This document shows positions 914 through 18,898 of a DNA stretch of 18,898 bases, piece by piece. The notes under the pieces are model-generated. The model worked only from the letters and a program-made list of their open reading frames with translations. It did no database searches and was not told the DNA's origin. The stretch is taken from positions 1 to 18,898 of the forward strand of contig JAYENL010000303.1 of assembly GCA_034722055.1 (NCBI GenBank), in the 5' to 3' direction. The position numbers and the translations under genes are program-made. The DNA is from Armatimonadota bacterium. Its GTDB lineage: Bacteria > Armatimonadota > Zipacnadia > Zipacnadales > UBA5352. Within the stretch, counting starts at the first letter, position 1, and each line of letters opens with the position of its first letter.

Positions 914-994
914 GTGGCACGGACACTCCTGTCCGTGCGTCGTTGCGCTTTGCTCTTACCCGCAAACGACCGACGGGCAGGAGTGCCCGTCGCA
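914..994. repeat. Inverted pair of REP-like palindromes (REPIN-like element)
   Basis: GTG-GCACGGACA-ctcc-TGTCCGTGC (914-938) and CGACGGGCA-ggag-TGCCCGTCG (971-992) are each a perfect 9-bp stem with complementary loops, in inverted orientation. The spacer arms gtcgttgcg and cgcaaacgac also pair. Confidence 0.75.
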
Positions 995-1084
995 GGGGAC
1001 GACCGGCGACAACGACTGGGCGCGAGCGTAGTCGCGCGCGTCCGAACGACTACACAACGACTGCCGCTCCCAGGGAGGCGCATC

Positions 1085-1408
1085 ATGCGCACGTTCCATC
1101 ACATCGGACTGCCGACCGACGAGCCGAAAGAGGGCGAATGGTACGTGGAGGAGACGAAGGTGTGGGTGACCGACCCCGAGGATCATCCCTACATGGTGGA
1201 GTTCCTGCGCTATGAGGAGGACAGCCCGGTCACCGGCCCGCTGCGCGACAGGCCGCACGTCTGCTTCGAGACCGACGACTACGAGCGGGACATCGAGGGC
1301 TGCGATGTCATCCTGGGCCCTTTCCGCCCGGATGACACGCGCACCGTCGTATTCGTGATGAAGGACGGGTGTGTGTTTGAGTACATGCAGTACGACGAGC
1401 CCCGATAG
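1085..1408 (+). CDS. VOC/glyoxalase-fold small protein
   Basis: GGGAGG SD precedes ATG 1085. Motifs FHHIG, VEFL, PHVCFETDD and FEYMQ give the H/E/H/E pattern of vicinal-oxygen-chelate proteins. The upstream extension in the ORF track runs through repeat DNA. Confidence 0.8.
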   Translation: MRTFHHIGLPTDEPKEGEWYVEETKVWVTDPEDHPYMVEFLRYEEDSPVTGPLRDRPHVCFETDDYERDIEGCDVILGPFRPDDTRTVVFVMKDGCVFEYMQYDEPR

Positions 1409-1418
1409 CGGGGCTCGT

Positions 1419-1448
1419 CGAGCGACAAGCTACAAGCGGCAAGCTAAC
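1419..1448 (+). repeat. Left heptamer tandem array (AGCNNCA)x4
   Basis: agcgaca-agctaca-agcggca-agctaac starting at 1421, 12 nt after the VOC stop codon. Confidence 0.9.
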
Positions 1449-1473
1449 GACAGTGACGACAGGGGGACCGGCC

Positions 1474-1850
1474 GTGAATCAGGGAAAGACAGTTTCCGTG
1501 ACCTCACAGTGTGGCAGAGGGCAGTCGATGTAGCTGGCGACGTGTACCGGCTTACGGAGACTTATCCGAAGCGGGAGACGTACGGCCTCACCTCCCAGAT
1601 GAGGCGGTGCGCGGCGTCCATCCCTGCGAATATAGCTGAGGGGCGAGGTCGGCACGGCGATGGGGACTTCCTTCGCTTCCTCTACATAGCAGCCGGGAGC
1701 CTCGCAGAGCTTGAGACTTTTGTCGAGCTGTCCCGCCGACTTGACTATGCGACGAACGATGAGTTGGCGCCTCTTGAACGAAGCGTGGAGGAGGTTGGGA
1801 GGATGCTGCAAGGCCTCATCTGCACCGTGCGCGAGGCGGTGAAGAAGTGA
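1474..1850 (+). CDS. Four helix bundle protein (23S_rRNA_IVP / TIGR02436 family, Avd-like); start uncertain, possibly made by -1 frameshift
   Basis: Family signature SFRDLTVWQ...YPKRETYGLTSQMRRCAASIPANIAEG...FLRFLYIAAGSLAELET; stop TGA at 1848-1850. GC is about 55-60% in sampled lines, with A/T-ending codons unlike the neighbours. Candidate starts are GTG 1474 (good SD, out of frame), GTG 1371 (in frame, inside the upstream gene) and GTG 1509 (no SD). Confidence 0.9.
1482..1488 (+). promoter_or_regulatory. Candidate -1 ribosomal frameshift slippery heptamer G_GGA_AAG
   Basis: The frame from GTG 1474 reads GTG AAT CAG GGA AAG. A -1 slip gives GGG AAA GAC AGT TTC CGT GAC CTC (GKDSFRDL), the four-helix-bundle frame. 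The unshifted frame stops at TAG 1531-1533. Confidence 0.45.
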
Positions 1851-1879
1851 GGCGATACGACGGCGCAGGGCGGTTCGCC

Positions 1880-1914
1880 GTAAGCTTGTAGCTTGCGGCT
1901 TGAGGCTTGCAGCT
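1880..1914 (-). repeat. Middle heptamer tandem array (TGNNGCT)x5, inverted relative to the left array
   Basis: gtaagct-tgtagct-tgcggct-tgaggct-tgcagct, about 30 nt after the four-helix-bundle stop codon. Confidence 0.9.
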
Positions 1915-1923
1915 CACGCACTA

Positions 1924-2139
1924 ATGTCCTGGGAAAAGCTACCACGCACTCCCCACTACGGCAACGTCTACCGGGCCCGGGTCCCCGGCGGCTGGCTGGT
2001 GCTGGCGGACACCTGGGCGCGGCATGAGGATGTGGAGAAGGGGATGCACTACGACTCCACCGGGGTGGGCATCTGCTTCTACCCGGATCCGAACCATGAG
2101 TGGACCCTCGCTGACGATGAGGAGTCCGGCAGCGGGTGA
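1924..2139 (+). CDS. Small hypothetical protein (71 aa) with RARVPGGWLV and FYPDPNHEW motifs
   Basis: ATG 1924 to TGA 2137-2139 with GC3-biased codons. The aromatic-rich, globular-looking sequence has motifs I recall from small uncharacterised bacterial proteins. No clear SD. Confidence 0.7.
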   Translation: MSWEKLPRTPHYGNVYRARVPGGWLVLADTWARHEDVEKGMHYDSTGVGICFYPDPNHEWTLADDEESGSG

Positions 2140-2185
2140 GCAGATGGCGCCATGCCCTGCGCCCTCCTCCGCCGTCGTCGTTGCC

Positions 2186-2292
2186 GGTAGCTCGTCGCTC
2201 GTAGCTCGCAGTTGCCGTGCCGCCGTCGCCGTGGCTTGCAGCTTGTCGCTTGTAGCTTGTAGCTTGTCGCTCGTAGCTTGCAGCTTGCACAT
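2186..2292 (-). repeat. Right heptamer arrays: (YGNNGCT)x4 at 2186-2213 and x8-9 at 2230-2292
   Basis: ggtagct-cgtcgct-cgtagct-cgcagtt, then cgtggct-tgcagct-tgtcgct-tgtagct-tgtagct-tgtcgct-cgtagct-tgcagct-tgcacat, ending just before the SD of the SDR gene. Confidence 0.9.
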
Positions 2293-2310
2293 CCCAAGGA
2301 GTGATCGCGC

Positions 2311-3081
2311 ATGTCAATCGAGGGCAATGTCGTCATTGTCACAGGCGGGACCTCGGGCATCGGGGAGGGCTGCACCCGGCACTTCGCTGCGCAGGGCGCG
2401 AAGGTCGTCGCCTCGTCGATTCAGCGCCAGGCGGGCGAGGCGCTGCAGGAGGAGCTGCGGGCGGAGGGCCGCGATGTGACCTTCGTCTACTGCGACATGC
2501 GACACGAGAACGAGGTCGCGGCGCTGGTGGACGAGACGCTGGAGCTGCACGGGCGCATCGACGGCGCCATGTCCAACGCCGGCGTGTGGGTGGAGGGCAC
2601 GGTGGAGGAGTTCAGCGATGAGGCCTGGGACCAGGTGATGGGCGTGAACGTCCGCGGCAACTTCCACTTCGCCAAGCACCTGGTTCCGGTCTACCGCGAC
2701 CAGGGCGAGGGAGTGCTGGTCATCGTGACCTCCACCGCGGCCTTCGTGGGCTTCCCCGCGCACGCCCTCTACTGCGCGTCGAAGGCTGCGCTGGAGGCGC
2801 TGATCCGCTGCCTGACCACCGACCACGCCGGCTACATGCGCACGGTCGGCATCTGCCCGGGCACCATCGACACGCCCATGCTGGCCGCCAGTGCCGAGGG
2901 CTTCCCCCAGCCCATCGATGAGCTCTACGCCGAGGTCGCGGAGAAGATCCCGGTGCGGCGCCTCGGCCAGCCGGAGGACGTTGCCAAGGCGGCGGCCTTC
3001 CTGCTCAGCGAGGACGCCGGTTACATCGCCGGCAGCTCCGTCCTCCTGGAGGGCGGGACGCTGGCCCTGCCGCCGTGGTGA
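2311..3081 (+). CDS. Short-chain dehydrogenase/reductase (SDR family NAD(P)-dependent oxidoreductase)
   Basis: TGGTSGIG (TGxxxGIG), SNAG, catalytic YCASK (YxxxK) and PGTIDT motifs; AAGGAG SD at 2296-2301. Confidence 0.95.
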   Translation: MSIEGNVVIVTGGTSGIGEGCTRHFAAQGAKVVASSIQRQAGEALQEELRAEGRDVTFVYCDMRHENEVAALVDETLELHGRIDGAMSNAGVWVEGTVEEFSDEAWDQVMGVNVRGNFHFAKHLVPVYRDQGEGVLVIVTSTAAFVGFPAHALYCASKAALEALIRCLTTDHAGYMRTVGICPGTIDTPMLAASAEGFPQPIDELYAEVAEKIPVRRLGQPEDVAKAAAFLLSEDAGYIAGSSVLLEGGTLALPPW

Positions 3082-3136
3082 CGCCGTGCCGACGGCGGCC
3101 CGCCAGGTCCGGCGCACGCGCGGCATGATGACCGTC

Positions 3137-3200: not shown

Positions 3201-6200
3201 ATGCGACGAGCGCTCCTGATCCTCGCAGTCCTGACATCACCGGCCGCGATGGTGGGGGCTGATGAGACCATGCGACTGGATTTCGACGCCGAGCCGGGCT
3301 TCGAGCCCCAGCCCTCCTGGGTGCCGACCCCGTCGGACGGTGCCACGGTGACGGTCGCTGACGGCGTGGCCCGCTTCGTGGTGCCCGAGCCGGAGATGGG
3401 CATGAAGTGGAGGCTGGCTCTCGACCGCCCTGCGGACATCGGGCTGTATCCGTGGCTGGTCATCCGCTACCGGGCGGATCACTACGCGGTGGATCGAGCG
3501 GACTACCTGGTGTGGCTGAACACCGACGCTGCCGGCGACGGCATTCGGCTGTTCCGCGGCGAGATCGAGGCGGACGGTACCTGGCACACCGTGGCCGTGA
3601 ACGTCCTGGAGGTCGGCGAGGGCTCGACGGCCTATCAGCTCGCCGTGCAGGTGCAGTCCACCGCTCAGGGCGACGGCTGGCTGGAGATCGATTCCATCGC
3701 GCTGGTGGATGCGCCGCCTGAGGACGCCACCGTGCACGAGCCGGAGCTGGGGCCCGATCGTGTGTGGGAGGTGCCGCTGGATGCCCCTGCTGACTTCACC
3801 CCGGAGCCGGACTGGCTGAGCAACCCGGCGGAGGATCATGCAGTAGAACGGACGGAGCAGGGCCTGCGCTTCTCGGTGGCGGAGGCCGGCCGCGGCATGA
3901 AGTGGTCGTTCGACCCGCCGGAGCCGGTGGAGGGCGCCCGCTGGCTGGCGGTCCGCTACCGGGCCGAGGGCGTGCAGCGCCGCCAGGATTACTTCGTCTA
4001 CGTGGCTAACGCCGGCGGGGGCAGCGCGCCGGATGAGCAGTACTGCCTGAGCCTCAATGACATCCGATCCACGGGCTCCTGGCAGGTGGCCGTCGGGCAG
4101 GTGGGGGTGAAGACCATCCGTGCCATGGCGCTGCAGGTACAGGCCGAGGCCCCGGAGGCCTCCGTGGAGGTGGCCTCGATGCGCCTGAGCCGCCATCGGC
4201 CGCCGCGGCTGGTCGCCGACACGCTGGAGATCGGCGCGGCTGAGGGGGACTTCCGGGCCCTGGCGCTGCCGGAGGGCGAGCGGAGCGTGGAAGAGATCTG
4301 CCGGCTGCTGGGCTACGACGACGCCCTGCCCGCGGGGCCGCTGAGCGTTGAGGGCGTGTCCTTCGATGTGCCTGCCCAGCCGCCGATGACGCAGATGGTT
4401 GGCGATGACGCGCTCTCCGTGCCGGTCGGCGAGCGGGCGTCGGAGGTCTACCTGCTGCTGGGGCTGCGGGCGCCGCGCGTCGAGGAGGAGTCCTACGGCG
4501 GTGGGGCCCTGAGCACCGTGACGCAGCCGCACCGCCTCCAGGTTCAGCTGGAGTATGGCGATGGGCGTCCCGACGCTGTCTTCCCGGTCTCGGTGCACAG
4601 CGGCGAGTTCGAGATCGAGCGCGGGCTGGGCGTGTACCTGCTGGCGCCGGATGTGACGCGCCTGTTGGAGCGCGTGGTCGTGCGGGACACCATGGATCGC
4701 GGCTCGCTGGCGGTGCTGGGGGCGACGGTGATGGCGGCGGGTGAGGCCCGGCGCTCGGAGCTGCATCCACGCCGCGCCGCGCCCATGCCCGTTCCGGCGG
4801 TCCGCGACGTCCCCGCGGGCGCGCCGGAGATCACCGTGGCCGGCGACCGCGTGCTGGTGGCCGGGCCTCGGCTGCAGGTGGAGCTGGACGCCGCCCGGCA
4901 GATGGCGGTGACGCTGCTGGGCAGCGACTTCATCGCGGGAGGCCCCTTCGACGTCGAGCCCAGGCCGCTCTTCGCGCTGGTTGTGGATGACGAGGAGGTC
5001 GCGGCGGAGGCGCTGGAGCGCCGCTCCTGCCAGGTCGATGACGCCGGAGTGCTGCGCGCCGAGTACATCTGCGCCGAGCCGCCGGTGACCGTCCTGGTGA
5101 CGCTGCAGCCCCGGGAGGACGGATCGATCGTCATCGGCCTGTCCGCGCGCAACGACGGCGGGCAGAGCACAGACATGGAGCTGCACGGCCCGCGCATCGG
5201 CGCTGTCCAGCCGCGGGACGAAGATGAGAGCCTCGCCTACATGTTCCCGTGCTGCGGCGCCGCCATCTCAGACGAGCCCGTCGGGCTGGCCGCGCCCTAC
5301 GGAGGCGGCTTCCCGCTGCAGGTGATGTGCCTGCACGTGCCTGACGGCGGCGGGCTGTTGCTCATGACGCGCGACAGCGACGCCCGGCTGTATCGCTGGC
5401 ACGAGCTGACCAAGCGCGACGGCGCGGTCTCGCTGGCGATCCGCTACCTGCAGCAACCGGTCGCGCCGGGCGAGGCCTTCGAGGCCGTTCCGACCCAGCT
5501 CGCCGGACACCCCGGCGACTGGCACGGCGCGCTGGAGCACTACCGCCAGTGGCTTGCCACGTGGTATGAGCCCGCGACGCCGCGGAAGCAGTGGTTCCGG
5601 GAGGTCTTCAACTTCCGCCAGCAGTTCCTGCGCTTCACGCTGCCCCGCAGGAGCGGGCTGTTCGATCCTGAGACGCAGATCTTCCACTTCGACGAGGTTC
5701 TGGCCCACGACGCGGAGATGTTCGGGGGCATCGACTACCTGCACACCTTCGACTGGGGCTGGTCGGAGGAGTACGGGCGCTGCGGCGATTACGATCACTG
5801 GGAGCAGCTCGGCGGGCTGGCGAACTTCCGCGAGGCGGTGCAGGGCGTGCAGCAGTCCGGCATTCCCGTGGGGCTGTATATCGAGGGGATGCTGGTCAGC
5901 CCCCAGGCGCAGATCGCCGAGCGCGCGAAGCGGTGGGAGATGCGCATGGAGAACGGCGAGCCGAACCCCTCCTTCGCGCCCAGCATGAACATGTGCTCGA
6001 GCCACCCCGGATGGCGGGAGTACCTGGCGGGCGTCTACCAGCGCGTGCAGTGGGAGGTGGGCAACCGGGGCTTCTACATCGACCAGTACGGCTTCGCCAA
6101 CGCCCGGAAGATCTGCTGGCGTGAGGACCATCCACACCCGATTCCTGCCGGGCCCACCTGGGGGGAGCTGCAGACCACGCGGGCGGTGCGTGACGCCATC

Positions 6201-6809
6201 GAGCCGACCACCGCGCTCTACACCGAGGAGACCCCCTGCGATGTGACCTCCCAGTATCAGGATGGCAGCTTCACGTACACCATCTCGCGCGCGCAGGACC
6301 GCCTCTCGCCCAGCCACCTGAACCTCTTCCGGTTCGCCATCCCGGACTTCAAGACCATCGAGATCATCGTCTGCGACCGGCCGCTGGGAACGAACGCCGA
6401 GGCCGTCATGCGCGTCTTCTTCAATGGCGAGGCCATCTGGCTGGAGGGCATTCCGGAGGACTGGTTCGGCCCCCGCGTGCTGGCGCTGATCGCGAAGACT
6501 CATCGGATCCTGCGCGAGAATCGCGACGCCTTCACGTCCCTAGACGTCACGCCTCTGGTGCCGACGCTGGCCGGTGAGCTCTACGCCAACGAGTTCCGCT
6601 GCGAGCGGGGAGCCGTCTGGACGCTCTACAACACGGCGCACCTCAGCTACGATGGCCCGGTGCTGCGCGTCGAGCACGTGCCCGGCGCGCGATACGCGGA
6701 CCTGTGGGGCGGCGAGGCGCTGGAGCCGCAGATCCGGGACGGCCAGGCCGTCATCAGCACGCGCCTGGGGCCGCGGGAGGTCGGCTGCGTGGCGCAGTGG
6801 GTGCGCTGA
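3201..6809 (+). CDS. Large secreted modular glycoside hydrolase-like protein (two N-terminal CBM-like repeats; C-terminal DUF6259-like TIM-barrel domain)
   Basis: 1202-aa ORF with signal peptide MRRALLILAVLTSPAAMVGA. It has duplicated ~145-aa N-terminal modules and a C-terminal region with GDWH...YRQW, VGLYIEG, GFYIDQYG and LYTEE motifs. Confidence 0.75.
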   Translation: MRRALLILAVLTSPAAMVGADETMRLDFDAEPGFEPQPSWVPTPSDGATVTVADGVARFVVPEPEMGMKWRLALDRPADIGLYPWLVIRYRADHYAVDRADYLVWLNTDAAGDGIRLFRGEIEADGTWHTVAVNVLEVGEGSTAYQLAVQVQSTAQGDGWLEIDSIALVDAPPEDATVHEPELGPDRVWEVPLDAPADFTPEPDWLSNPAEDHAVERTEQGLRFSVAEAGRGMKWSFDPPEPVEGARWLAVRYRAEGVQRRQDYFVYVANAGGGSAPDEQYCLSLNDIRSTGSWQVAVGQVGVKTIRAMALQVQAEAPEASVEVASMRLSRHRPPRLVADTLEIGAAEGDFRALALPEGERSVEEICRLLGYDDALPAGPLSVEGVSFDVPAQPPMTQMVGDDALSVPVGERASEVYLLLGLRAPRVEEESYGGGALSTVTQPHRLQVQLEYGDGRPDAVFPVSVHSGEFEIERGLGVYLLAPDVTRLLERVVVRDTMDRGSLAVLGATVMAAGEARRSELHPRRAAPMPVPAVRDVPAGAPEITVAGDRVLVAGPRLQVELDAARQMAVTLLGSDFIAGGPFDVEPRPLFALVVDDEEVAAEALERRSCQVDDAGVLRAEYICAEPPVTVLVTLQPREDGSIVIGLSARNDGGQSTDMELHGPRIGAVQPRDEDESLAYMFPCCGAAISDEPVGLAAPYGGGFPLQVMCLHVPDGGGLLLMTRDSDARLYRWHELTKRDGAVSLAIRYLQQPVAPGEAFEAVPTQLAGHPGDWHGALEHYRQWLATWYEPATPRKQWFREVFNFRQQFLRFTLPRRSGLFDPETQIFHFDEVLAHDAEMFGGIDYLHTFDWGWSEEYGRCGDYDHWEQLGGLANFREAVQGVQQSGIPVGLYIEGMLVSPQAQIAERAKRWEMRMENGEPNPSFAPSMNMCSSHPGWREYLAGVYQRVQWEVGNRGFYIDQYGFANARKICWREDHPHPIPAGPTWGELQTTRAVRDAIEPTTALYTEETPCDVTSQYQDGSFTYTISRAQDRLSPSHLNLFRFAIPDFKTIEIIVCDRPLGTNAEAVMRVFFNGEAIWLEGIPEDWFGPRVLALIAKTHRILRENRDAFTSLDVTPLVPTLAGELYANEFRCERGAVWTLYNTAHLSYDGPVLRVEHVPGARYADLWGGEALEPQIRDGQAVISTRLGPREVGCVAQWVR

Positions 6810-6870
6810 GAGAGCGGAGGAGCGCGGCGTGCCCACGCCGCCTGCGCGTTGCCTCCATGCCGTCAGGATC

Positions 6871-6890
6871 GGCGGGCTTCCTTGCCCGCC
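6871..6890. terminator. Hairpin between convergent genes (possible bidirectional terminator or REP-like unit)
   Basis: ggcgggc-ttcctt-gcccgcc is a perfect 7-bp GC stem in the 6810-7052 convergent intergenic gap. Confidence 0.4.
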
Positions 6891-6982
6891 CGGCCGTTGT
6901 CGTCGGCAGGGCCGGTCGTTCCGTTCGCGACGTGCTCCCGTTCGCGGCCGGCGGTTTGCCGTTCGGCATCGGGGGCAAGGCG

Positions 6983-7013
6983 AACGACGTACGCACAAGA
7001 GTGTGTGTGCCAC
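6983..7013 (-). repeat. Dispersed copy of the REP-like palindrome family
   Basis: aacgacgtacgcacaagagtgtgtgtgccac aligns ungapped with the reverse complement of 914-944 (aacgacgcacggacaggagtgtccgtgccac) at 26/31 positions. Confidence 0.75.
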
Positions 7014-7052
7014 GGAACGACGGCGCTTGTCGTGCCGTTTGGGAGGACGGAA

Positions 7053-8441
7053 CTACGTTCCCGGCCGGTCGTTGTCGTGCGCAGGGCTGATGATCAGCAG
7101 CTCGCGGGTGTTGTGCGTGATGACCACGACGTCGCGCGGATGCGCCGAGGTGACCCGGGCGGCCCGCGCGCACATGGCTCCCACGAAGCCGGGATAGAAT
7201 GTGTCCCGGTACGGGATCTTGGCGACCTCGCGGCCGGCGTGATCCAGGACCGTCAGGTAGAGCGTGAAGGCCGTGTCCTCGTCGGCCAGATCGTCCTGTC
7301 CGAAGCCGCGCAGCAGCTCCGCCTGCACCATCTCGCGCGATCCCGGCGCCGACCAATCGACCCAGTCGCCGGCGCTGGTGAGCAGGATGCCGTTGGGCCC
7401 GCGCGAGAAGTTGCTGTACTGCCACTCCATCTCGCCCTCGGGGCTGATGCCCCAGGCCATGCCGCCGGTCTTGGAGTTGAGGTAGATCAGCGGCTCCTCC
7501 CGCCCCGGCGGCGTGGCGCAGTCAATCTTCTGACCATGCTCGATGCGCTCGCGGAGCGTCCAGAGCAGGTCGCCCTCGGCGTCGAAGAGGCAGCCGCCCG
7601 TCGAGGTGGCGACCTGCCTGCTCTCGCCCAGGAGCGGAGCGATGACCAGGTCGTCCACGTGCGTGTCCTCGCCCACCTCCGTGGGGACGTGCTTGGACCA
7701 CAGCGGCTCGCCGGCGCGGTCCCGGACCTCGAAGCGCTCGGCGTCGGCCATGCTGAAGGCGATCTCATCGATGCCGTCGCCGCTCAGGTCTCCGGCGAAC
7801 ATAAAGTCCTCGAAGGACAGGCCCACCGTATCGTGCTCCCAGAGGACGCTCCCCTGACCGTCCACGGCGACGAGCGAGCCGTGCTCGCCGTGATGGTTGA
7901 CGCCCGCCACGATGGCGGGAGGTCCCCCCTGACTGAGGCGCGCCAGCGTCCAGATCTGCGCCAGGCCATCGAGGTCGATGCTGCGCTTGAGCTCCCCGGT
8001 GGTGGCGTCGAGGACGTGGATGGGTCCAAGGCCGACGACGACCTCCGGGGCGCCGTCGCCGTCGATGTCCACGATCTCAGTGAGCAGGTGGCGATGCGGT
8101 GTCCGGTAGTGCCAGTGGCTGCGGGCGTAGCGCTCGTGGTCATCGTAGACCGAGTGGTAGAAGGGCGCCTGCGTGGTCTCCCACAGCACCGTTCCGTCGC
8201 CGCGGAAGAGCGCGACGACGTCCTCCTCGCCGCGGTTGAAGGGAACCGCGATCTCATCGCGGCCGTCGCCATCCGCGTCGCCGGTCCCCGGGTTGCAGCT
8301 CGCGACGGTGGCCGCCTCCAATGGCACGCGCGTCACACGCGCCGCGCTGCGCTCCGCCAGCTCAGCGCCGATCCGCGGCGGCATCACCGCTCCGCCGAGC
8401 TGGGGCTGGGGCGACGGACAGGCCCGCACGGTCTCCAGCAT
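7053..8441 (-). CDS. FG-GAP / calcium-blade beta-propeller repeat protein
   Basis: AGGAGG SD 7 nt before ATG 8441. Repeated DxDGDG motifs (GDADGDGRDEI, DIDGDGAPEV, GDLSGDGIDEI) alternate with GxxLW blade motifs. No evident signal peptide. Confidence 0.8.
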   Translation of the reverse strand: MLETVRACPSPQPQLGGAVMPPRIGAELAERSAARVTRVPLEAATVASCNPGTGDADGDGRDEIAVPFNRGEEDVVALFRGDGTVLWETTQAPFYHSVYDDHERYARSHWHYRTPHRHLLTEIVDIDGDGAPEVVVGLGPIHVLDATTGELKRSIDLDGLAQIWTLARLSQGGPPAIVAGVNHHGEHGSLVAVDGQGSVLWEHDTVGLSFEDFMFAGDLSGDGIDEIAFSMADAERFEVRDRAGEPLWSKHVPTEVGEDTHVDDLVIAPLLGESRQVATSTGGCLFDAEGDLLWTLRERIEHGQKIDCATPPGREEPLIYLNSKTGGMAWGISPEGEMEWQYSNFSRGPNGILLTSAGDWVDWSAPGSREMVQAELLRGFGQDDLADEDTAFTLYLTVLDHAGREVAKIPYRDTFYPGFVGAMCARAARVTSAHPRDVVVITHNTRELLIISPAHDNDRPGT

Positions 8442-8467
8442 CGAAGTGCCTCCTCTGTCTGCGCCTC

Positions 8468-9472
8468 CTACCAATCGATCTCGATCTCCTGCTCCTTCTC
8501 TGCGGATTCGCGGGCGGCCAGGCAGGCCTTCACGGCCGCCATGGACTCCTCGGGCGTGATGATCGACGGCTCCTCGCCAAGCTGGACGCAGTCGCCGAAG
8601 TAGCGCAGCTCATCCACCAGCGCGCCCTCTAGCCTTCCGTGCAGGGTCGCCCAGTAGGTGGTGTCGGGGTAGTGCCAGCCCTCCTCGTCGCACACCGCGA
8701 GGCTGGGCGCGACCTCCTGGACGTGGATGGAGCCGTCGGTGCCGCAGATCTCCATCCGCTCATCGATCTGCATGGCGGTGGTATCGGGCAGAAACCACAC
8801 GTTCTCGAGCACCGCGATCGCCCCGTTGTCCATGGTGAACATGCTCCAGCCCAAGTCCGCGTTGCCCAAGTCGCGGACAGTGACGGTCCGCGCGTAGACC
8901 TTCACCGGCTTCAGCCCTGAGCACCACAGCATGATGTCCATGTCGTGGACGCCGTCGCCGACGATGGGCCCGATCTTGGGCAGAACGCCCTCGGTCACCC
9001 ACTGGGGGATGTTCCGCCGGGCGTACATGGAGACGATGCGGCCCAGCTTTCCCTCCTCGGCCTGCCGCTTCGCCATGGCGTAGCGGGGGTTGAAGCGACA
9101 GATGTGTCCCACCATGAAGTAGCGGTCCGAGGCGTTGGCGGCATCCACCATGGCCTGGCAGTCCTCCACGGTGGAGGCCATGGGCTTCTCGCAGAAGACG
9201 TGCTTGCCGGCCTCCAGCGCCGCCAGCGAGGGGGGCGCGTGGAAGTCCCACATGGTCGTGATGCTCACCGACTCCAGCTCCGGATTCTGCAGCATCTCCT
9301 CGTAGTCGGTGTAGGCGTGGGGGACGTTGAAGCGCTCCGCGACCTCCTGCAGCCGTGACTCGGTGCGCGTGCAGATGGCGTAGAGCTCCATGTTGGGGAT
9401 GGCGTCGATTGCCTCGCAGTGCTTCTCGCCGAACCAGCCGATTCCGATGACTCCGTGTCTGACCCGCTCCAT
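8468..9472 (-). CDS. Gfo/Idh/MocA family NAD(P)-dependent oxidoreductase
   Basis: GVIGIGWFG Rossmann motif, GKHVFCEKPMA, VGHICRFNP and catalytic DGVHDMD; AGGGAGG SD before ATG 9472. Confidence 0.95.
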   Translation of the reverse strand: MERVRHGVIGIGWFGEKHCEAIDAIPNMELYAICTRTESRLQEVAERFNVPHAYTDYEEMLQNPELESVSITTMWDFHAPPSLAALEAGKHVFCEKPMASTVEDCQAMVDAANASDRYFMVGHICRFNPRYAMAKRQAEEGKLGRIVSMYARRNIPQWVTEGVLPKIGPIVGDGVHDMDIMLWCSGLKPVKVYARTVTVRDLGNADLGWSMFTMDNGAIAVLENVWFLPDTTAMQIDERMEICGTDGSIHVQEVAPSLAVCDEEGWHYPDTTYWATLHGRLEGALVDELRYFGDCVQLGEEPSIITPEESMAAVKACLAARESAEKEQEIEIDW

Positions 9473-9667
9473 GACAGGGCCCTCCCTGCGTTGCGGAAGT
9501 TGTGCGCAGCCGCCGGCGGATCGCGCCCGCCGCCGTGACTGCCGCTTCGCCGTCGCCCTCTTCGCGTCCTCCACGCGCCGGGCCCGTCACCTGATCCATG
9601 CGGAGGTGCGGACCGACTTGCGAGCTGAGTCTGCTCTGGCGTCATGCAGCAAGCATCCGTGCCTACC

Positions 9668-9696
9668 AACGACGGCAGGTTGGAGGCCTGTGCTAC
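9668..9696 (-). repeat. GTAG-type REP-like palindrome in the divergent intergenic region
   Basis: The minus strand reads GTAG-CACAGGCCTCCAACCTGCC-GTCGTT: a GTAG tetranucleotide, an imperfect palindrome, then the same GTCGTT tail as the other copies. Confidence 0.55.
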
Positions 9697-9808
9697 AGGA
9701 GCAGGCTCGCGGCTGATGAAGGCCATGCGACGCCTGGGGCGAAGGCATGCGGGGAAGGGGAAGACAGTACAGCCGCGCTGAGCCGTGCACGAAAGCAGGG
9801 AGGTCACC

Positions 9809-12721
9809 ATGAGCCCCCGGCAGATCGCGTTGATTGCGGCACTGAGTGCAGCCCTCTGCACCCCGGCGGCTGCTCAGCCGACCGTGACAGCCACGAGGAC
9901 CGATGCCGCGCCTACGCTGGACGGACGCCTGGACGAGGCGCTGTGGGAGCGTGCACGGTGGCACTCGGGCTTCACGCTGCTGGGCGAGACCGAGACGCCG
10001 GCTCAGGCGCAGACGCAGTTCGCGGTAGCCTTCGATGACATGAAGCTTTACTTCGCGGTGAAGTGCCTGGAGCCGAACATGGACCAGCTCGAGGCCACCG
10101 TCACCGAACGCGACGGGAAGGTCCACGGCGATGACTGCGTGGAGCTGATGGTGGACCCGACCGGAGACCGGGTGGAGTACTATCACTTCACGGTGAACCC
10201 GCTGGGCACGCTGTATGACGCGCAGCTTCGCCAGGGCGGCAACGTGCGTTTCCTGGAGTGGGACTGCGACTGGCAGGCGGCGGTGGCCCGGGGCGAGGAC
10301 TCCTGGACGGTGGAGGCGGCGATCCCATTCGTGCAACTTGCACTCGATGAGGGCTCCCGCGATTTTTGGGCGCTGAACGTCGCCCGCGAACGCCGGGCCG
10401 GCACGCAGGAGCTGTCGAGCTTCACGGAGGCCCCCGGGGGCTTCCACCAGCCCGGCTTCTACGCCGAGTTGCTGCTGCCCGACGCCGACCTGGGGCGCTA
10501 CATGTGGACGGTGCGCGACCCCTTCGACGTGCGGGTGGTGATGCGCGACGGTCAGGTGCTGTATGAGGCGAAAACGCATATCACCAACCAGACCGGGCGC
10601 TTCTGGTTCATCGAGCTGCGGCCGGAGCTGATGAGCGAGGAGGGGGCTTCCGCCGGGGAGCCGGTCTCGGCCGGGCTCGATGACGGTCAGGGCCGGGAGC
10701 TGGCCTTCAGCGTCCCCGTCGCCGAGCAGGGGCGGCAGGTGCTGCGCCTGCGGATCGTGGACAGGCGCGATCTCCAGCGGGTGCTGCACGTGCGCTCCAT
10801 GCCGGTTGATGTGCACTACACCCCGCTGGCCATCGACATCACGCGGCCCTGCTACCGTAACAGCATCTACGCCACGCAGGATATCGATACAGTGCAGTTC
10901 TCCGTGACCTCGGCGCTGAGCGAGGAGCAGCTTCGGGGCCATCGCCTGACGGCGGGCGTGTTCCAGCCGGGCGGGGAGGCGGGCGGCAGCTATGGGCGTC
11001 TGGTCGCGGGCCCCGAGTCCGTGCCGGCCGCGGCGGAGGTGCAGATGTCGATTCCTGTCAGCGACCTCCCGGTGGGTGACTACGTGCTGGGCGCGCAGAT
11101 CGTCGGAGAGGGCGGGCGCGTGGAGCACGGGGCGAGCGAGCCGCTGCGCAAGCTGCCGCCCTCGCCCAGCGGCCACGAGTGGCGGATCGACGAGAACCTG
11201 GTGCTCCGCCACAACGGCGAGCCCTTCCTGCCCTTCGGCTGGTTCAGCTACCGGTGGCGGGAGCATGACACTGACGACCCCTACACCGCCATGCAGGACT
11301 ACAACGCCAACTGGCGGTCGGTGGAGGAGAACCGCGAGCTGTTCGACGGCATCGCCGAGAGGGGCCTGTTCGTTACCGTCTACCCGTACTGCCGGGAGTT
11401 CATGAACCGGGGCGATGTCCTGAAGCGGCCGCTGAACGACGAGGAGGCCGAGGTGCTGCGCGAGCGCGTGACTGCGCTCATGGACCACGAGGCGCTGCTG
11501 GCCTGGTACATGGCCGACGAGCCGGAGCTGCGGCCGGTCCTGCCCCGGCGAGCGGAGCAGATCTACCAGGTGGTGCGCGACGCCGATCCCTACCACCCGT
11601 GCATCATGCTTAATGACACCATCGCCGGGATCCACACCTACGCCGGAGGCGGCGACATCCTCATGCCGGACCCCTACCCGCTCTTCCTGGAGGGAGGCCT
11701 GGCGGCACGCGGCATCGAGCGCACCAGCAACTTCGTCAGGGCCGTCCGCGAGGCCACCGACGGGCAGAAGCCGGCGTGGGTCACCCCCCAGGCCTTTAAC
11801 TACGGGGACTACGGCCGAGCCGGCAATCGGGCTCCGACCTTCACGGAGCTGCGCAACCAGCTCTACCAGGCGGTGGTCTACGGCGCCAAGGGCTTCCTGT
11901 GGTATACGCACAGCCAGGCCTTCAACTACCCGTCGCTGGGGATCGGGATGGACTTCCTGTGCCGGGAGGCGCTGGACCTGAAGGCCGCCATTCTCAGCCC
12001 GGACGCCCCGGATGAGGTGTCGGTGCAGGCGCCGCAACCCGAGCACATGCACGTTGCGGTCCGGCGCGCCGGCGGCGAGCTCTACGTCTTCGCGGTCAGC
12101 ACCGCGACCCAGCCGCAGGAGGCCACCGTTACGGTCGCCGGGGCGCCCGAGCGCCTCTACGTGGTCAGCGAGGGCCGGCGCGTGGAGCTGGCGGAGGGCG
12201 CCATCGCCGACCGCTTCGACGTCTACGCCACGCACATCTACACGACCGACGGGGCCCTGGCGGAGAGGGACCAGCTTGAGGACGTCCAGCGGCGGATCGC
12301 CGAGGCCGATGCCGCCCGCGAAAAGCCGGGCAACCTGGCCTTCGAGGACAGCGGCGTGGAGGTGGAGATCTCCAGCGGCTCGCGGTACGGCAACACGCCG
12401 GGGCGCGTCGTTGATGGCATCGAGGGACACATGGGGTGGCGGGCGGATCGCCAGGCAGAGGGCGATCACTGGCTGAAGCTCACCTGGCCGGATCCGGTGG
12501 CTATCGGCCGCGTGGTAATCTACAGCCCGAGCATCGCTGAGGCCGAGATCCAGGTGCCAGACGGCGAAGCATGGACGACGGTCGCCACGGCGTCGGGCAC
12601 CGACCGCCTGGAGGCGACCTTCGGTGCCGTCGAGACGACCAGCCTGCGCATCCTTGTGAACCGGCTGGCCGGTGAGGCGTCGGAGCCGACCATCCAGGAG
12701 GTGGAGGCCTATGCGCAGTAG
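9809..12721 (+). CDS. Secreted modular glycoside hydrolase-like protein: CBM9-like (DOMON-like) N-terminal domain, TIM-barrel domain, C-terminal F5/8 type C (discoidin/CBM32-like) domain
   Basis: GGGAGG SD before ATG 9809 and a signal peptide ending in PAAA. CBM9-like motifs PTLDGRLDE, DDCVEL and WTVEAAIPF; NGEPFLPFGWF; LLAWYMADEPE; C-terminal GNLA...VVDG...HWLKLTW. Confidence 0.8.
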   Translation: MSPRQIALIAALSAALCTPAAAQPTVTATRTDAAPTLDGRLDEALWERARWHSGFTLLGETETPAQAQTQFAVAFDDMKLYFAVKCLEPNMDQLEATVTERDGKVHGDDCVELMVDPTGDRVEYYHFTVNPLGTLYDAQLRQGGNVRFLEWDCDWQAAVARGEDSWTVEAAIPFVQLALDEGSRDFWALNVARERRAGTQELSSFTEAPGGFHQPGFYAELLLPDADLGRYMWTVRDPFDVRVVMRDGQVLYEAKTHITNQTGRFWFIELRPELMSEEGASAGEPVSAGLDDGQGRELAFSVPVAEQGRQVLRLRIVDRRDLQRVLHVRSMPVDVHYTPLAIDITRPCYRNSIYATQDIDTVQFSVTSALSEEQLRGHRLTAGVFQPGGEAGGSYGRLVAGPESVPAAAEVQMSIPVSDLPVGDYVLGAQIVGEGGRVEHGASEPLRKLPPSPSGHEWRIDENLVLRHNGEPFLPFGWFSYRWREHDTDDPYTAMQDYNANWRSVEENRELFDGIAERGLFVTVYPYCREFMNRGDVLKRPLNDEEAEVLRERVTALMDHEALLAWYMADEPELRPVLPRRAEQIYQVVRDADPYHPCIMLNDTIAGIHTYAGGGDILMPDPYPLFLEGGLAARGIERTSNFVRAVREATDGQKPAWVTPQAFNYGDYGRAGNRAPTFTELRNQLYQAVVYGAKGFLWYTHSQAFNYPSLGIGMDFLCREALDLKAAILSPDAPDEVSVQAPQPEHMHVAVRRAGGELYVFAVSTATQPQEATVTVAGAPERLYVVSEGRRVELAEGAIADRFDVYATHIYTTDGALAERDQLEDVQRRIAEADAAREKPGNLAFEDSGVEVEISSGSRYGNTPGRVVDGIEGHMGWRADRQAEGDHWLKLTWPDPVAIGRVVIYSPSIAEAEIQVPDGEAWTTVATASGTDRLEATFGAVETTSLRILVNRLAGEASEPTIQEVEAYAQ

Positions 12722-13442
12722 CGTTCGCACCGCGGTGCTGGCGCTGGCGATGCTGTGCAGCTTTTCTGCGCTGACGGCGGCGGAGGGCCTGGTGGCGCAC
12801 TGGCGCATGGAGGGCATCGAGGACGGCGCCGTGGCTGACGCGACTGGCAACGGCCATCACGCCACGGCGCACGGCCTGGACGGAGAGCTGCCGGAGGTGG
12901 TGGAGGGCATCGCTGGAAACGCGCTGCGCTTCCATCGCGACCTGGAGCAGTACCTTCTGGTAGAGAGCAGCGAGGACCTGGCCGCCCCCGAGAGCCTGAC
13001 GGTGATGGCCTGGATCCGGCCGGCGATGCGCAAGGGCGCTCACGGGATCATCGGCAACAAGAGCGATAAGAGCGGCGACCCGCCCTGGCCGGGCTGGCGC
13101 TTCCGGTACTTCTGGGCCCGGATCATCTTTCAGTACGGGACTGCGGATGGCCGGGAGCCGACGGTGAGCTCAGAGAACTGGTCGGTGATGCCCGGCTTCT
13201 GGCACCACGTCGCCGCGGTCTACGACGGACATCGCGTGCGCCTCTACGTGAACTGCGAGCCGGCGGCGGATGAGGAGGTCGAGGGGGCGATCATGCCGCG
13301 CGAGCGCAGGTTCGTCATCGGCAACTTCGTGGGCCGCAAGAACGCCTATGCCTTCGACGGCGAGATCGACGAGCTGCGCATCTATGACCGGGCTCTCAGC
13401 GCGGAGGAGATCTTTGAGGCGGCAGTCGAGGGTATGCCGTGA
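12711..13442 (+). CDS. Secreted LamG-like jellyroll (ConA-like lectin/glucanase superfamily) protein
   Basis: GGAGG SD and ATG 12711 overlapping the upstream gene end by 11 nt; signal peptide. Motifs GLVAHW, LTVMAWIRP, WHHVAAVYDG, LYVN and FDGEIDELRIYDRALSAEEI. Confidence 0.9.
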   Translation: MRSSVRTAVLALAMLCSFSALTAAEGLVAHWRMEGIEDGAVADATGNGHHATAHGLDGELPEVVEGIAGNALRFHRDLEQYLLVESSEDLAAPESLTVMAWIRPAMRKGAHGIIGNKSDKSGDPPWPGWRFRYFWARIIFQYGTADGREPTVSSENWSVMPGFWHHVAAVYDGHRVRLYVNCEPAADEEVEGAIMPRERRFVIGNFVGRKNAYAFDGEIDELRIYDRALSAEEIFEAAVEGMP

Positions 13443-13494
13443 GCACCGACGGCAGCCGTGCCGGCGCGGCCGCCTCCGGGATGGGTCTCGGGCG

Positions 13495-16400
13495 CTACCG
13501 GTCGATGGAGTGGGGCGGCTCGATGCTCCGTCTTCCCAGGCGCCGCAGGGCATCCTCCAGCGCCGCCGCCACTCCCTGCCGATGCGCCGCCACCACTGAC
13601 GGGTCCTGCGTGTACTCCGTCCAGTCGGTGGTAACTGCCGGGAAGCCCAGGGCGGCGCGAGCCCTCTCCGCCGCAGCCCGCTCGCCTCTGGCCTCAAGCT
13701 CGTCCGCGGCGGCCGAGAGCATCGCCAGCATGTCGTAGTCCTCCACGCCGTCGCGGTTGAGCTCCCAGCGGATGCTGCTGACCGGTCCGTCCTCCCCCGG
13801 GTAGATCAGCGACCCGTCGCCGTTGCCGCCGGGATAGGTCATGGGATTCTCCCACGGGTCCTCCTGCCAGTAGGTAATGCGCCAGTACAGGAAGCCCGTG
13901 ATCTCGTGCTGGAAGAGCTGCCAGAAGAGAATGCGGTGATCGGTGCCGGGATAGTCGATGGCCCAGTTGTTCAGCCACGGCCGCTGGGCCGAGATACACA
14001 CGTAGGCCCAGATCTCGTCGCCGGCCTGGCGGCGCTGCTCCAGGTAGATGGGCTCGAAGCAGTCGCTGTGCGGCACGTGGATGTCCACGAAGCCGGCCAG
14101 CTCGGCGTAGCGGGGGTTGCCCGGCTCGATAGGCCGGCTGGCGCCGTAGCCGTAGGTCAAGAGGGTCTTCAGCTTCGGCGCCACCTCATCCACCAGCCCG
14201 AAGGCCTGCTTGACGGCGTCGAAGGCCTTGGCCCCCGGCTCGTCGATGGTGTAGATGTAGCCCAACCGGTGCCAGTCGCGCTCGGCCAGGTGCGCTTCGG
14301 TGCGCTGCAGCAGCTCGGTGGCGCGCTGGATCTGCCGGCGCTGCTCCGGGGTGGGCTCCTCCTCCCAGCCCTCCACCGTCCCCCAGCCGGATGGCAGGCG
14401 GCACCACCGGATGTTGAAGGCCGTCAGGCCCAGGTCGATCGCACGCTCGATCCCGGCGTCGAACTCCGACCAGTCGATGCTGATGGTCCCGTCCTCAGCG
14501 GTAGAGATGCGCGGGGAGCCCATGCCCTCGGGGCTGCACCGGTGGAGCAGGCAGTTGTCGCGGTAGGCGCGCATGATTGAGTCCGGGGTGAACTGGCCCA
14601 TCTCGAAGCCGGGGTTGGGGAGCAGGTTCCGCTCGGGATCGTCGGCGGGGCTGAGGCGTGCGTCGTCGAACCAGACGCTGCCCACCTCGAAGGTGCGCAG
14701 ATACAGCCGCGTATTCTCCGCCTCGCCCATGGTGAAACGGGCGCTGGCCTGGCGCCACTCACCGTCGGTGGGCGGCAGGTCGCCGGCCCCGCCTTCGGGC
14801 ATCCACCACGCGGCGCGGGTGTCCTCTCCGGGCGCGGTCCGATACCACAGCTCGAAGATGTACTCGCCGCCCGGCTCCAGGGGCATGGGGTCGGTGTAGT
14901 AGCAGAAGCGCGGCGCCTCGTGAGTGCCCCTCTCGGCGTGGGTGATCGTGACGCGCACGGAGTTGCGGCCACCGTGCCTGTGCTCCTGATCGAAGGCCGC
15001 GGTGAACTCCATGTCGCCGAAGTAGTTCGGCCGGCCCTCGACGTCGGCGCCGGTCCAGGCCCCGGCGTTCCACTGCGGGGGCCTGCCGGGGCCGGGATTC
15101 ACGTTCGGGTAGAAGCTCGAGACGTTGAAGCCCAGCCCGTAGCAGGTGCGCAGCCACGGCGTGCGGGGCAGCGCGAAGTCCCAGACGCGCGCGGTCAGCG
15201 GCACCTGCAGCGGCTCGGCGTCCGAAGGGTCGATGGTGATGGTGCCGCGATACGTCCCCGCCGGCTGGTCCGCGGCGGTATGCACGGTCAGCCACACGGA
15301 GCGGACCTCGCCCTCCGGCACGTCGAAGGGCTCCGCAGCCACCAGCGGATCGGGCAGCCGCCCGGGGCCCAGCGGCGCCTTGGAGGTGGACTGCGTCACG
15401 GTCACATATGCTGCGCGCGTCACCTCGATCTCGCCCGCGGGGATGGTCGCGCCCGCCGGACCCGAGAGGTCGGAGACGCTGACCGCCACCTCCTGCAGAG
15501 CCCGGCCGGCGGGGACGATCACCACCTGCGCGGCCTCGCGCTCGTTGGCGGCGAGGGCGATCTCAACTGACTGGGCGGGCTGTCCGGCGAAGGCAGCGTC
15601 CGGCGGGATCTTCTGCATGGTGCTGGCCTGCGAGATGACGTAGCCGCGAGTGCCCGCTGCGGCGGCCAGCGGCAGCCGGGCCACCAGCCGCGCCAGGCGC
15701 TGGGCCTCCTCGCGAAGCTGGTCCACCTGCGTGACCAGCGTCGGGGTCTCCTCGGTCTCCGGCTCCGCCCGCAGCGTCGCGGCAAGCTCGCCGGCGTCGC
15801 CGCTCAGTCGCTGCGCCCGCCCCAGCGCCACCCGGCCCAGCGCGATCTCCTCGTGCGGCAGGGCCTCCCGGCGGAGGGCCGCCAGCTCGGCCTGCACGTG
15901 CGCGACGCGCTGGAGGGCCTGGGCGCGCAGCAGGGGCGCGAAGTCAGCGTCGAGACCCCGCAGATGGCCGAACTGCTCCGGCTGGTGGAAGTTCTCTCCG
16001 GGCAGCGGCGCCCAGGTGCTCAGCTCCTCGCGGGGCAGCCGATGGCGGGTGAAGTTCATCCGCCAGTGCTCATCGACGCCCGGTGGAAGCTGCATCGAGG
16101 CCAGAGGCAGGGCGAGCTCCACCAGCCAGCGGTCGTCCTCGCGGGTCGCGGCGGCTCGCGCGTTGGACTCCCACGTCTCCTCCTTCCCGCGCTCATCGCG
16201 CAGCGTGCCCAGCGGGTTGACCAGCAGGTGGTAGTATCCGCTGCCGTCATGCGCCGGGCTCACGAACAGCTCCACGCAGTCCTCAGACCAGACCGGCGCG
16301 TCATGCTCGGTCATGGTGCCCACGATCTCATCCATGGTGTCCTCGGCACACTCCCACGCGACGAAGAGCGTGGCGTCATCGTGCGTGATGCGCACGCGCG

Positions 16401-16599
16401 TGGTCTGCGCTGGGGTGGCCTGCGGATTCCCGAGCAGCGTGAAGCCGTCGGCGACGCCGGCGTCCTGCCAGACGTCCTCATCGAGTCGCCCGTCGATGAC
16501 AGGCGGCGGCCCCGAGAGAGCCGTGGAGCGCACTTCAGGCTCCTGGGCGGCGCAGTGTGCGGCTGTGAGCGTCGCTGCGACCATGATGGCGACGAGCAT
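13495..16599 (-). CDS. Secreted GH123-like / DUF4091-domain glycoside hydrolase with N-terminal CBM9-like domain and internal CBM4/9-like insert
   Basis: GGAGGG SD before ATG 16599; signal peptide. CBM9-like PPVIDGRLDE; GH123-like AANEREAAQV, AGTYRG, VWDFALP, YTIDEP, WAYVC and GFLYW; DUF4091-type GDGSLIYPG...SSIRWELNRDGVEDYD. Confidence 0.85.
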   Translation of the reverse strand: MLVAIMVAATLTAAHCAAQEPEVRSTALSGPPPVIDGRLDEDVWQDAGVADGFTLLGNPQATPAQTTRVRITHDDATLFVAWECAEDTMDEIVGTMTEHDAPVWSEDCVELFVSPAHDGSGYYHLLVNPLGTLRDERGKEETWESNARAAATREDDRWLVELALPLASMQLPPGVDEHWRMNFTRHRLPREELSTWAPLPGENFHQPEQFGHLRGLDADFAPLLRAQALQRVAHVQAELAALRREALPHEEIALGRVALGRAQRLSGDAGELAATLRAEPETEETPTLVTQVDQLREEAQRLARLVARLPLAAAAGTRGYVISQASTMQKIPPDAAFAGQPAQSVEIALAANEREAAQVVIVPAGRALQEVAVSVSDLSGPAGATIPAGEIEVTRAAYVTVTQSTSKAPLGPGRLPDPLVAAEPFDVPEGEVRSVWLTVHTAADQPAGTYRGTITIDPSDAEPLQVPLTARVWDFALPRTPWLRTCYGLGFNVSSFYPNVNPGPGRPPQWNAGAWTGADVEGRPNYFGDMEFTAAFDQEHRHGGRNSVRVTITHAERGTHEAPRFCYYTDPMPLEPGGEYIFELWYRTAPGEDTRAAWWMPEGGAGDLPPTDGEWRQASARFTMGEAENTRLYLRTFEVGSVWFDDARLSPADDPERNLLPNPGFEMGQFTPDSIMRAYRDNCLLHRCSPEGMGSPRISTAEDGTISIDWSEFDAGIERAIDLGLTAFNIRWCRLPSGWGTVEGWEEEPTPEQRRQIQRATELLQRTEAHLAERDWHRLGYIYTIDEPGAKAFDAVKQAFGLVDEVAPKLKTLLTYGYGASRPIEPGNPRYAELAGFVDIHVPHSDCFEPIYLEQRRQAGDEIWAYVCISAQRPWLNNWAIDYPGTDHRILFWQLFQHEITGFLYWRITYWQEDPWENPMTYPGGNGDGSLIYPGEDGPVSSIRWELNRDGVEDYDMLAMLSAAADELEARGERAAAERARAALGFPAVTTDWTEYTQDPSVVAAHRQGVAAALEDALRRLGRRSIEPPHSIDR

Positions 16600-16648
16600 C
16601 GATCATCCCTCCACTGCAGTGCATCGCTCAGCGATGGGTCGCGCCGTG

Positions 16649-18733: not shown

Positions 18734-18799
18734 GCTTGTGCGGATGAGGGCGACGAGGGCACTCGGTGCTTGGTTGCCTGGCAGATGTGTGGCGCGACT

Positions 18800-18898
18800 G
18801 GTGGAGGGGCCGCCGGGCGCGTAGCGCCCGGTGAGGCCTGTAAGCGTAGCGAACAGGCCGAAGGTTCCACCCCGGCCCACGCCTTCAGCGAGGGTGGG
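18800..18898. other. Cluster of hairpins, two capped by GC-GTA-GC, enclosed by an outer stem
   Basis: ccgggcgc-gta-gcgcccgg (18813-18831) and ggcctgt-aa-gc-gta-gc-ga-acaggcc (18835-18859) lie inside ggtgga (18800-18805) / tccacc (18866-18871). A further cccac...gtggg hairpin occupies 18876-18898. Confidence 0.55.

Follow-up and report, generated by a model that had tools for sequence, protein, structure and literature searches.

In the 23S rRNA of Coxiella, an intervening sequence (IVS) carries an S23p open reading frame (ORF) within a stem that is cut by RNase III, with tandem heptamers (GACAGAT) upstream of the ORF (PMC4990558). The same four-helix-bundle family, PF05635/TIGR02436, has been described in cas loci (PMC3936711) and in rRNA insertions of CPR bacteria (10.1101/2024.02.27.582315), and the available text of these two papers mentions no repeats. 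In the Avd protein of diversity-generating retroelements (DGRs), one RNA stem-loop is contacted by all five protomers, with flipped bases lodged in the crevices between them (10.1101/2023.10.23.563531). Runs of heptamers have also been reported on their own account: TAACTGA runs lie before start codons in Beggiatoaceae, Cyanobacteria and Bacteroidetes (PMC4679880, whose author considered that a repeat-binding protein might be the mobile element), and heptanucleotide sites are known in Geobacter (PMC2700814). The accessible text of neither source names a link to PF05635 (“S23” and “four helix” gave no matches in the first, “S23” none in the second). In our literature search, for which subscription papers were mostly outside scope and on which the Geobacter and Beggiatoa supplements may bear, PF05635 was connected with heptamer arms in rRNA alone. 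The cyanobacterial STRR sequences are orphan heptamer runs of a like kind.

A PF05635 gene between heptamer arms

The window, an 18,898-nucleotide stretch of an Armatimonadota genome (G000), carries a PF05635 gene that is enclosed by heptamer arms and placed within a host operon. The cassette proper spans ~1409-1920 and begins at the TAG stop codon (ending at 1408) of a 107-aa host gene on the + strand (1085-1408; orthologues in 24 of 31 genomes). Repeat and fold analysis places a perfect 12-bp hairpin at 1393-1420 (+), whose loop contains or adjoins the stop codon of the host gene and which directly abuts the left arm (1421-1448, +), which consists of four AG-phased heptamers of the type AGCNNCA, three perfect and one imperfect (AGCGACA, AGCTACA, AGCGGCA and AGCTAAC). 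Inner repeats of the ACGAC/ACGGC type follow (1445-1461, +), and then the PF05635 gene itself (1474-1850, +; domain at 1497-1814). On the other side, right arm 1 (1866-1914, -) joins an inner repeat to five heptamers (1880-1914; four perfect TGNNGCT units and one imperfect), ends 10 nt before a 71-aa host gene (1924-2139, +), and forms the right edge of the cassette proper. Two extra right-hand arms, with arrays at 2186-2292, precede the downstream host gene, a short-chain dehydrogenase (SDR) identified by its profile match (2311-3081, +). Arm 2a (2169-2213, -) holds an inner repeat and degenerate heptamers of the YGNNGCT type (2186-2213) and is a direct duplicate of 2220-2262; arm 2b (2220-2292, -) holds nine heptamers (2230-2292, the final one imperfect) and ends immediately upstream of the AAGGAG site that precedes the SDR gene.

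The four arrays had been noted in a first-pass annotation of this DNA, together with an exact 19-bp inverted match between 1419-1437 and 2255-2273, and all of them are present in the letters. Across 300 shuffles of the region the longest inverted repeat was 13 bp, and inverted repeats of at least 19 bp occurred in 6 of 600 random 1.1-kb windows of the genome. A period-7 scan likewise bore out the observation that the window holds no further arrays of this kind. Three public contigs, of which X1 and X2 cover 915-3100 and X3 covers 1148-1930, show zero differences from the window, so that the layout and the frameshift described below are not an assembly slip, with the proviso that X1 and X2 may themselves be the source of the window DNA.

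Folding predicts that the arms pair and loop the gene out, as had been proposed (z = -5.3 against 20 shuffles), with ~24-26 expected pairs in the stem around the gene. In the full transcript, the predicted partner of the left arm is arm 2b, and in a transcript that stops at 1930 it is arm 1. The window gave no Rfam match, and the cassette is flanked by protein genes and does not lie in an rRNA gene; it contains no transposase. No junction of the kind expected after excision of the cassette was seen in public DNA contigs, which lends no support to the suggestion of an excisable unit. A contig (X4) that joins left-arm-like to right-arm-like sequence via 29 other letters was set aside, as those letters were not found in G000 and it probably derives from another locus or organism.

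Some labels of the first-pass annotation had to be revised. Its SDR neighbor was confirmed, whereas the 107-aa gene, which it called VOC from a likeness of motif, has no Pfam or NCBIfam match. The contrast in GC content that it drew is only modest: The PF05635 gene has 60.2% GC compared to 69.5% for the window and 69.6% for the SDR gene, but the 107-aa gene has 62.3%. The GC3 of the PF05635 gene is 0.72 vs 0.87 and 0.93; recent foreign acquisition, as judged from GC, was ruled out by a low GC3 in all orthologues (0.65-0.86). Neither the 71-aa gene nor the frameshift had been reported. The 71-aa gene is itself without a Pfam or NCBIfam family, evolves under purifying selection (dN/dS of 0.06 against the congener G001), and mostly precedes the SDR gene in relatives.

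Two other parts of the window may be recorded here. Upstream of the 107-aa gene, positions 915-995 hold a REP-like palindrome doublet, a motif with ~71 matches in the genome that also flanks a RAYT-like Y1_Tnp gene (C324:43488-43712 of G000); motif and gene probably form an ordinary REPIN-RAYT pair. Positions 3201-18880 encode large carbohydrate-active or secreted proteins (DUF6259, CBM9, GH123, LamG, and a PQQ-repeat metallophosphoesterase).

The assignment of the enclosed gene to PF05635/TIGR02436 was upheld at 128.6 bits (cut-off 33.8) and 127.8 bits (cut-off 24), respectively. Since its solved homologues 2GSC (E = 6e-25) and 2RLD comprise five chains each, we infer that the protein is a pentamer. 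Models of Avd matched below threshold (NF033474, E = 7.5e-8, 32.6 vs 80 bits; PF22296, E = 1.2e-5), and no known catalytic motif was found. In the window copy, the frame set by the native GTG at 1474, which follows a GGGGG at 1462-1466, differs by one base from that of the domain owing to a frameshift after codon 5, while the copy in G001 is in frame. The frameshift coincides with a GGGAAAG (1482-1488, +), which we take to be a candidate slippery-type heptamer of the form X-XXY-YYZ. An upstream in-frame GTG at 1371, which would yield a 159-aa ORF running through the arm and overlapping the host gene, is an unlikely start. Eight copies of the gene that precede an orthologue of the 71-aa gene could be read, three of them intact (G001, G005 and L085) and five broken (G000, G004, G010, G016 and L087/88); the copy in G012 falls in an assembly gap. 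With a dN/dS of 0.12 against G001, the gene is under purifying selection alongside this frequent decay. It appears to be chromosomal, as matches are rare elsewhere: 31 among 72,556 records of plasmids and none among 50,697 of phages.

The site in relatives and the arms dispersed in the genome

Comparison with relatives identifies the 107-aa, 71-aa and SDR genes as a host operon. As the 71-aa gene belongs to this operon, a mobile unit does not extend to 2292, contrary to the earlier claim; the gene is found with or without the cassette, and its presence at empty sites ruled it out as cargo. In G009 (L083/L097) and L086, the first two genes lie 35-45 nt apart with neither arrays nor a PF05635 gene, whereas the site is occupied in G000, G001, G005, G010, G012, L085 and L087/L088. 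In G016, a PF05635 gene precedes the 71-aa gene behind a different upstream neighbor, and G004 retains a remnant of the gene at the site, recognized by eye only. Eight further relatives, in which the 107-aa gene stands in another context, are uninformative on the site. The extra right arm before the SDR gene is found in G000, G001, G005, G010, G012, L085 and L087 and is absent in G009, L082 and G016. The proposal that the arms are the cis-acting parts of a small mobile unit thus holds insofar as the unit is optional, with an empty upstream junction in two relatives, but judging by its distribution the site is old, common to several genera, marked by apparently long vertical residence, and not recently mobile.

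A quick and weakly resolved tree grouped the copies by insertion site and largely by phylum, with some cross-phylum groups, and placed the clade of the window site beside copies at the C29 site, which suggests that copies spread to new sites within a lineage. A separate PF05635 clade lies between tRNA and SRP RNA genes across the order, or between two tRNA genes (G000 C115:24492-24860; L108, L121 and L135), with arms that are of the ACGGC type and less regular; its G000 copy apparently has ATC where orthologues have a start codon.

The layout extends far beyond these relatives, and the expectation that arrays flank PF05635 homologues was confirmed in many phyla. Among the best 80 of 576 homologue loci, a nonrandom sample from more than 10 phyla, 69 have a period-7 array upstream and 65 have one downstream; 56 have both. 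At control positions 1.2 kb away, the counts are 4 of 74 and 1 of 70. Loci with such cassettes occur, for instance, in Nostoc, Chloroflexus and Mesorhizobium (L043, L067 and L034). No other period from 4 to 12 occurred on both sides in any of these 80 loci. Upstream arms in this sample are purine-rich, and downstream arms are their complement within a locus. The unit starts with AG (A 0.80, G 0.94) and is otherwise variable, as read from 55 consensus units in 67 loci. Cognate arms resemble each other in unit (similarity of 0.77 vs 0.50 for noncognate arms; 45 of 56 above the 95th percentile), and loci with more similar proteins have more similar units (rho = 0.20; p = 0.003 when permuted within phyla). 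The alignment columns of the protein that vary with the unit are concentrated between 50 and 70, in the loop joining helices 2 and 3 and in helix 3 itself (z up to 9.3, before any correction for descent), which is no more than a lead. No enzyme neighbor recurred across the best 80 loci.

Genome G000, whose genes were called with our own simple caller, has four PF05635 genes and many more arms. We counted 84 arrays of at least three AGCNN[CG][AG] units, compared to 1 per simulated 3 Mb, and 151 of 154 AG-phased arrays lay outside called genes. The arms are strongly polarized on the sense strand, with the AG arm after stop codons and its complement before start codons: Among 84 arrays within 40 nt of a gene end, 57 were AG arms after a stop and 25 were complementary arms before a start, with 2 exceptions (82 of 84 polarized), while 67 further arrays lay more than 40 nt from gene ends; a gene-anchored count gave 55:3 and 33:4. 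TAG accounted for 27 of 55 stops with arms (odds ratio 2.1, p = 0.005, partly due to the arm definition), and 24 of 55 stop-side arms share one phase with the stop codon. The commonest arm size is five AG-phased positions (60 of 164 arms; the detection threshold lies near 3-4), and the ACGAC/ACGGC-type inner motif lies behind 127 of 164 arms, compared to 18% of intergenic windows taken as controls. This genome also has more tandem arrays with a period of 10 than expected (21 with a score of 20 or more).

Most arms cannot form a long stem, since only 8 gene-less inverted pairs occur among the 164 intergenic arms of G000 (in a count of 17 “inward pairs,” 8 overlaps from the palindromic AGCT core were subtracted). 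The sole gene found enclosed by a close inward arm pair in G000 is the PF05635 gene. Most arrays are unpaired and lie far from any PF05635 gene, which goes partly against the first-pass view of the arrays as the ends of the gene's own unit. Arms differ even between congeners: Of seven array sites compared with G001, three share the arm, two are empty, one is armless with another neighbor, and one has no orthologue. The junction of the gene-less hairpin at C215 is empty in all four relatives with adjacent flanking genes (G001, G005, G010 and G012), so that the hairpin was gained in the G000 lineage. No target-site duplication was visible at two aligned empty sites, though these are diverged. 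A DNA hidden Markov model (HMM) found no decayed PF05635 remnants elsewhere in G000 and none in four array-bearing regions of G006 and one of G026; the same HMM also missed the remnant in G004. At another junction (C91:5420-5694 / L192), an AGTT-type hairpin in G000 supplies the upstream stop codon, the site is empty in G001, and G010 has its own arm of the GGGGCAT type.

The dispersed repeats match the arms around the resident gene. The orthologous site has AGT in each of its three arms in G005 and L085 and AGC in each of them in G000, G001 and L087, and this one-base difference is mirrored genome-wide: G005, whose arms at the site are AGTCRCM, has 21 AGTCRCM and 4 AGCYRCR matches, whereas G000 has 107 AGCYRCR matches and G001 has 32, with no AGTCRCM match in either. 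Arrays of the GGSVAT type gave 26-67 matches in five genomes with such gene-flanking arms and 0 in G000. They also occur in G003 (31 matches) and G002 (13) without a gene of that type among the copies read, and G006 (83% complete) has 135 matches, yet no PF05635 gene was found there; many gene-less hairpins with GGCAAT arms are seen in that genome (L136-L139). Across 31 genomes, array density follows PF05635 count with rho = 0.68, a value in which kin are nonindependent and counts are inflated by flanking arms; the correlation is 0.84 outside the family and 0.43 within it (p = 0.08, not significant).

Explanations of the dispersed arms

The reading that we favor, with about an even chance of being correct on these sequence comparisons, is a pair of the REPIN/RAYT kind, in which a master PF05635 gene would maintain dependent repeats and an Avd-like pentamer would take the place of the transposase. 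It builds on directly observed features, namely the arm-gene-arm layout, the period of 7, the AG phase, the polarity, the unit matching, the gain of a gene-less hairpin, and a gene that is under purifying selection yet often decays. The pentamer would bind cognate heptamer runs and help to seed gene-less arms at gene boundaries. It would bind the AG arm, probably as RNA and perhaps with one unit per protomer, as suggested by the peak of arm sizes at five AG-phased positions and by the reading of flipped-out bases between protomers in Avd. Pairing of the arms in the transcript would loop the gene out and place the stop codon of the host gene beside the ribosome-binding site downstream, which would make an insertion nearly free of cost. 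The stem may be a target of RNase III, as it is in rRNA IVSs. As the protein lacks a known catalytic motif, the writing of new arms would fall to a host enzyme that acts in trans. No obligate partner emerged, as neither a reverse transcriptase (RT) nor a PF13366 nuclease nor a neighboring enzyme co-occurs consistently: RT (PF00078) was not found in 9 of 17 PF05635-positive genomes, nor among the main ORFs of the window (the RT matches of G000 are on other contigs), and PF13366 was not found in G000, G001, G005, G006, G010 or G012. A counterpoint is that the arrays have expanded in G000 though its window copy is frameshifted. The protein for the AGC arms of G000 might now come from a sister copy on C29, which is in frame, or from the window copy through a low level of -1 slippage. 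Given its frameshift, the window copy is a poor substrate for binding tests, and the orthologues in G001 and G005 are intact.

More broadly, and more tentatively, PF05635 may be the specificity subunit of a hitherto undescribed class of transposase-free intragenomic replicators across phyla, whose pentamer would read five AG-phased heptamers by the variable helix 2-3 loop and guide a host enzyme that writes the arms. These would be placed in register with stop codons and with the ends of RNA genes, and by folding they would remove the insert from the transcript. If such a class exists, it would account for the ORFs of rRNA IVSs, for orphan heptamer repeats in cyanobacteria, Beggiatoaceae and Bacteroidota, and possibly for the origin of Avd, and it would offer a programmable repeat-binding ring.

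A host regulon presents a different, rather unlikely explanation, whereby the pentamer would be a post-transcriptional regulator like TRAP or Csr that binds the dispersed arms where mRNAs end and start, and that uses the arms beside its own gene for autoregulation. Such a role would fit the strict polarity at stop and start codons, the majority of solo arms, the sharing of solo arms with the congener at three of seven sites, and the long vertical residence by site, and a regulatory role was indeed proposed for the TAACTGA runs before start codons (PMC4679880). It sits poorly with a gene that is broken in five of eight readable copies, that was not found in 14 of 31 relatives, and whose arrays differ in load ~7-fold between congeners (573 vs 82 matches). 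Copies are also found beside tRNA and SRP RNA genes and within rRNA, a setting that precludes any role in translation control.

A further explanation, which we regard as unlikely, has the hairpins spread independently of PF05635, through a RAYT, some other nuclease or recombination, with the gene as cargo that survives because it is hidden by the stem and a unit that tracks the protein by descent alone. The array-rich G006 without a detected gene points this way, as do the missing catalytic motif and the six Y1_Tnp matches of G000, two of which lie within ~400 bp of an arm. However, the Y1_Tnp genes have palindromes of another kind on their flanks, the array-rich genomes G000, G001, G005 and G006 gave no PF13366 match, no gene other than PF05635 was found inside a close inward arm pair in G000, and purifying selection on the gene requires some function. 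Lastly, neutral slippage, by which microsatellites would build up in intergenic space with an incidental link to the gene, would explain why unit numbers differ between congeners at shared sites but is highly improbable, being largely refuted by the layout survey and the unit-similarity test, that is, by a fixed period and AG phase over 55 consensus units in 67 loci, by complementary and polarized arms, and by three arms at one site that changed from C to T together.

Comparison with known systems

The system of gene and arms is real and widespread and, as a system, apparently undescribed. It connects the function of the S23p four-helix-bundle family with the origin of intergenic heptamer runs in several phyla, and the switch from AGC to AGT at an orthologous site, mirrored genome-wide, makes this link directly testable. 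What the present locus adds is this one-base switch, the registration with stop codons, the polarized gain of a gene-less copy, and a local gene that is frameshifted.

The TAACTGA repeat is the complement of the AG-phased unit AGTTATC, and its polarity is that of the right arms in the window (PMC4679880). With insertion sequences and MITEs the cassette compares poorly, as it has no transposase and no target duplication was visible at the two diverged empty sites. The protein is predicted to share a homologous pentameric barrel with Avd, at scores below the family cut-offs (10.1101/2023.10.23.563531 and PMC10053308), but unlike in DGRs no RT, template repeat (TR) or variable repeat (VR) adjoins the window gene.

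The S23p IVSs in the rRNA of Coxiella, Leptospira and Brucella resemble the cassette in that a terminal stem holds a gene of the same family in its loop, heptamers occur in tandem, and the ORF is prone to decay (PMC4990558). In contrast to them, the cassette lies between protein genes of an operon and is accompanied by extra downstream arms and by ~160 dispersed gene-less arms. REPIN-RAYT systems are alike in that a low-copy gene is flanked by its cognate repeat, with many gene-less extragenic copies and several repeat types per genome (10.1101/2021.07.10.451892); their gene is chromosomal and mostly vertically inherited, as the PF05635 gene appears to be. They differ in the enclosed gene, which here is PF05635 with no HUH/Y1 tyrosine transposase, in the arms, which here are tandem heptamers, mostly solo, and not short palindromes, and in that the PF05635 gene occupies several sites and decays often. 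Overall, the element works like a REPIN-RAYT pair and is built like an IVS, and by the defining tests of each it belongs to neither.
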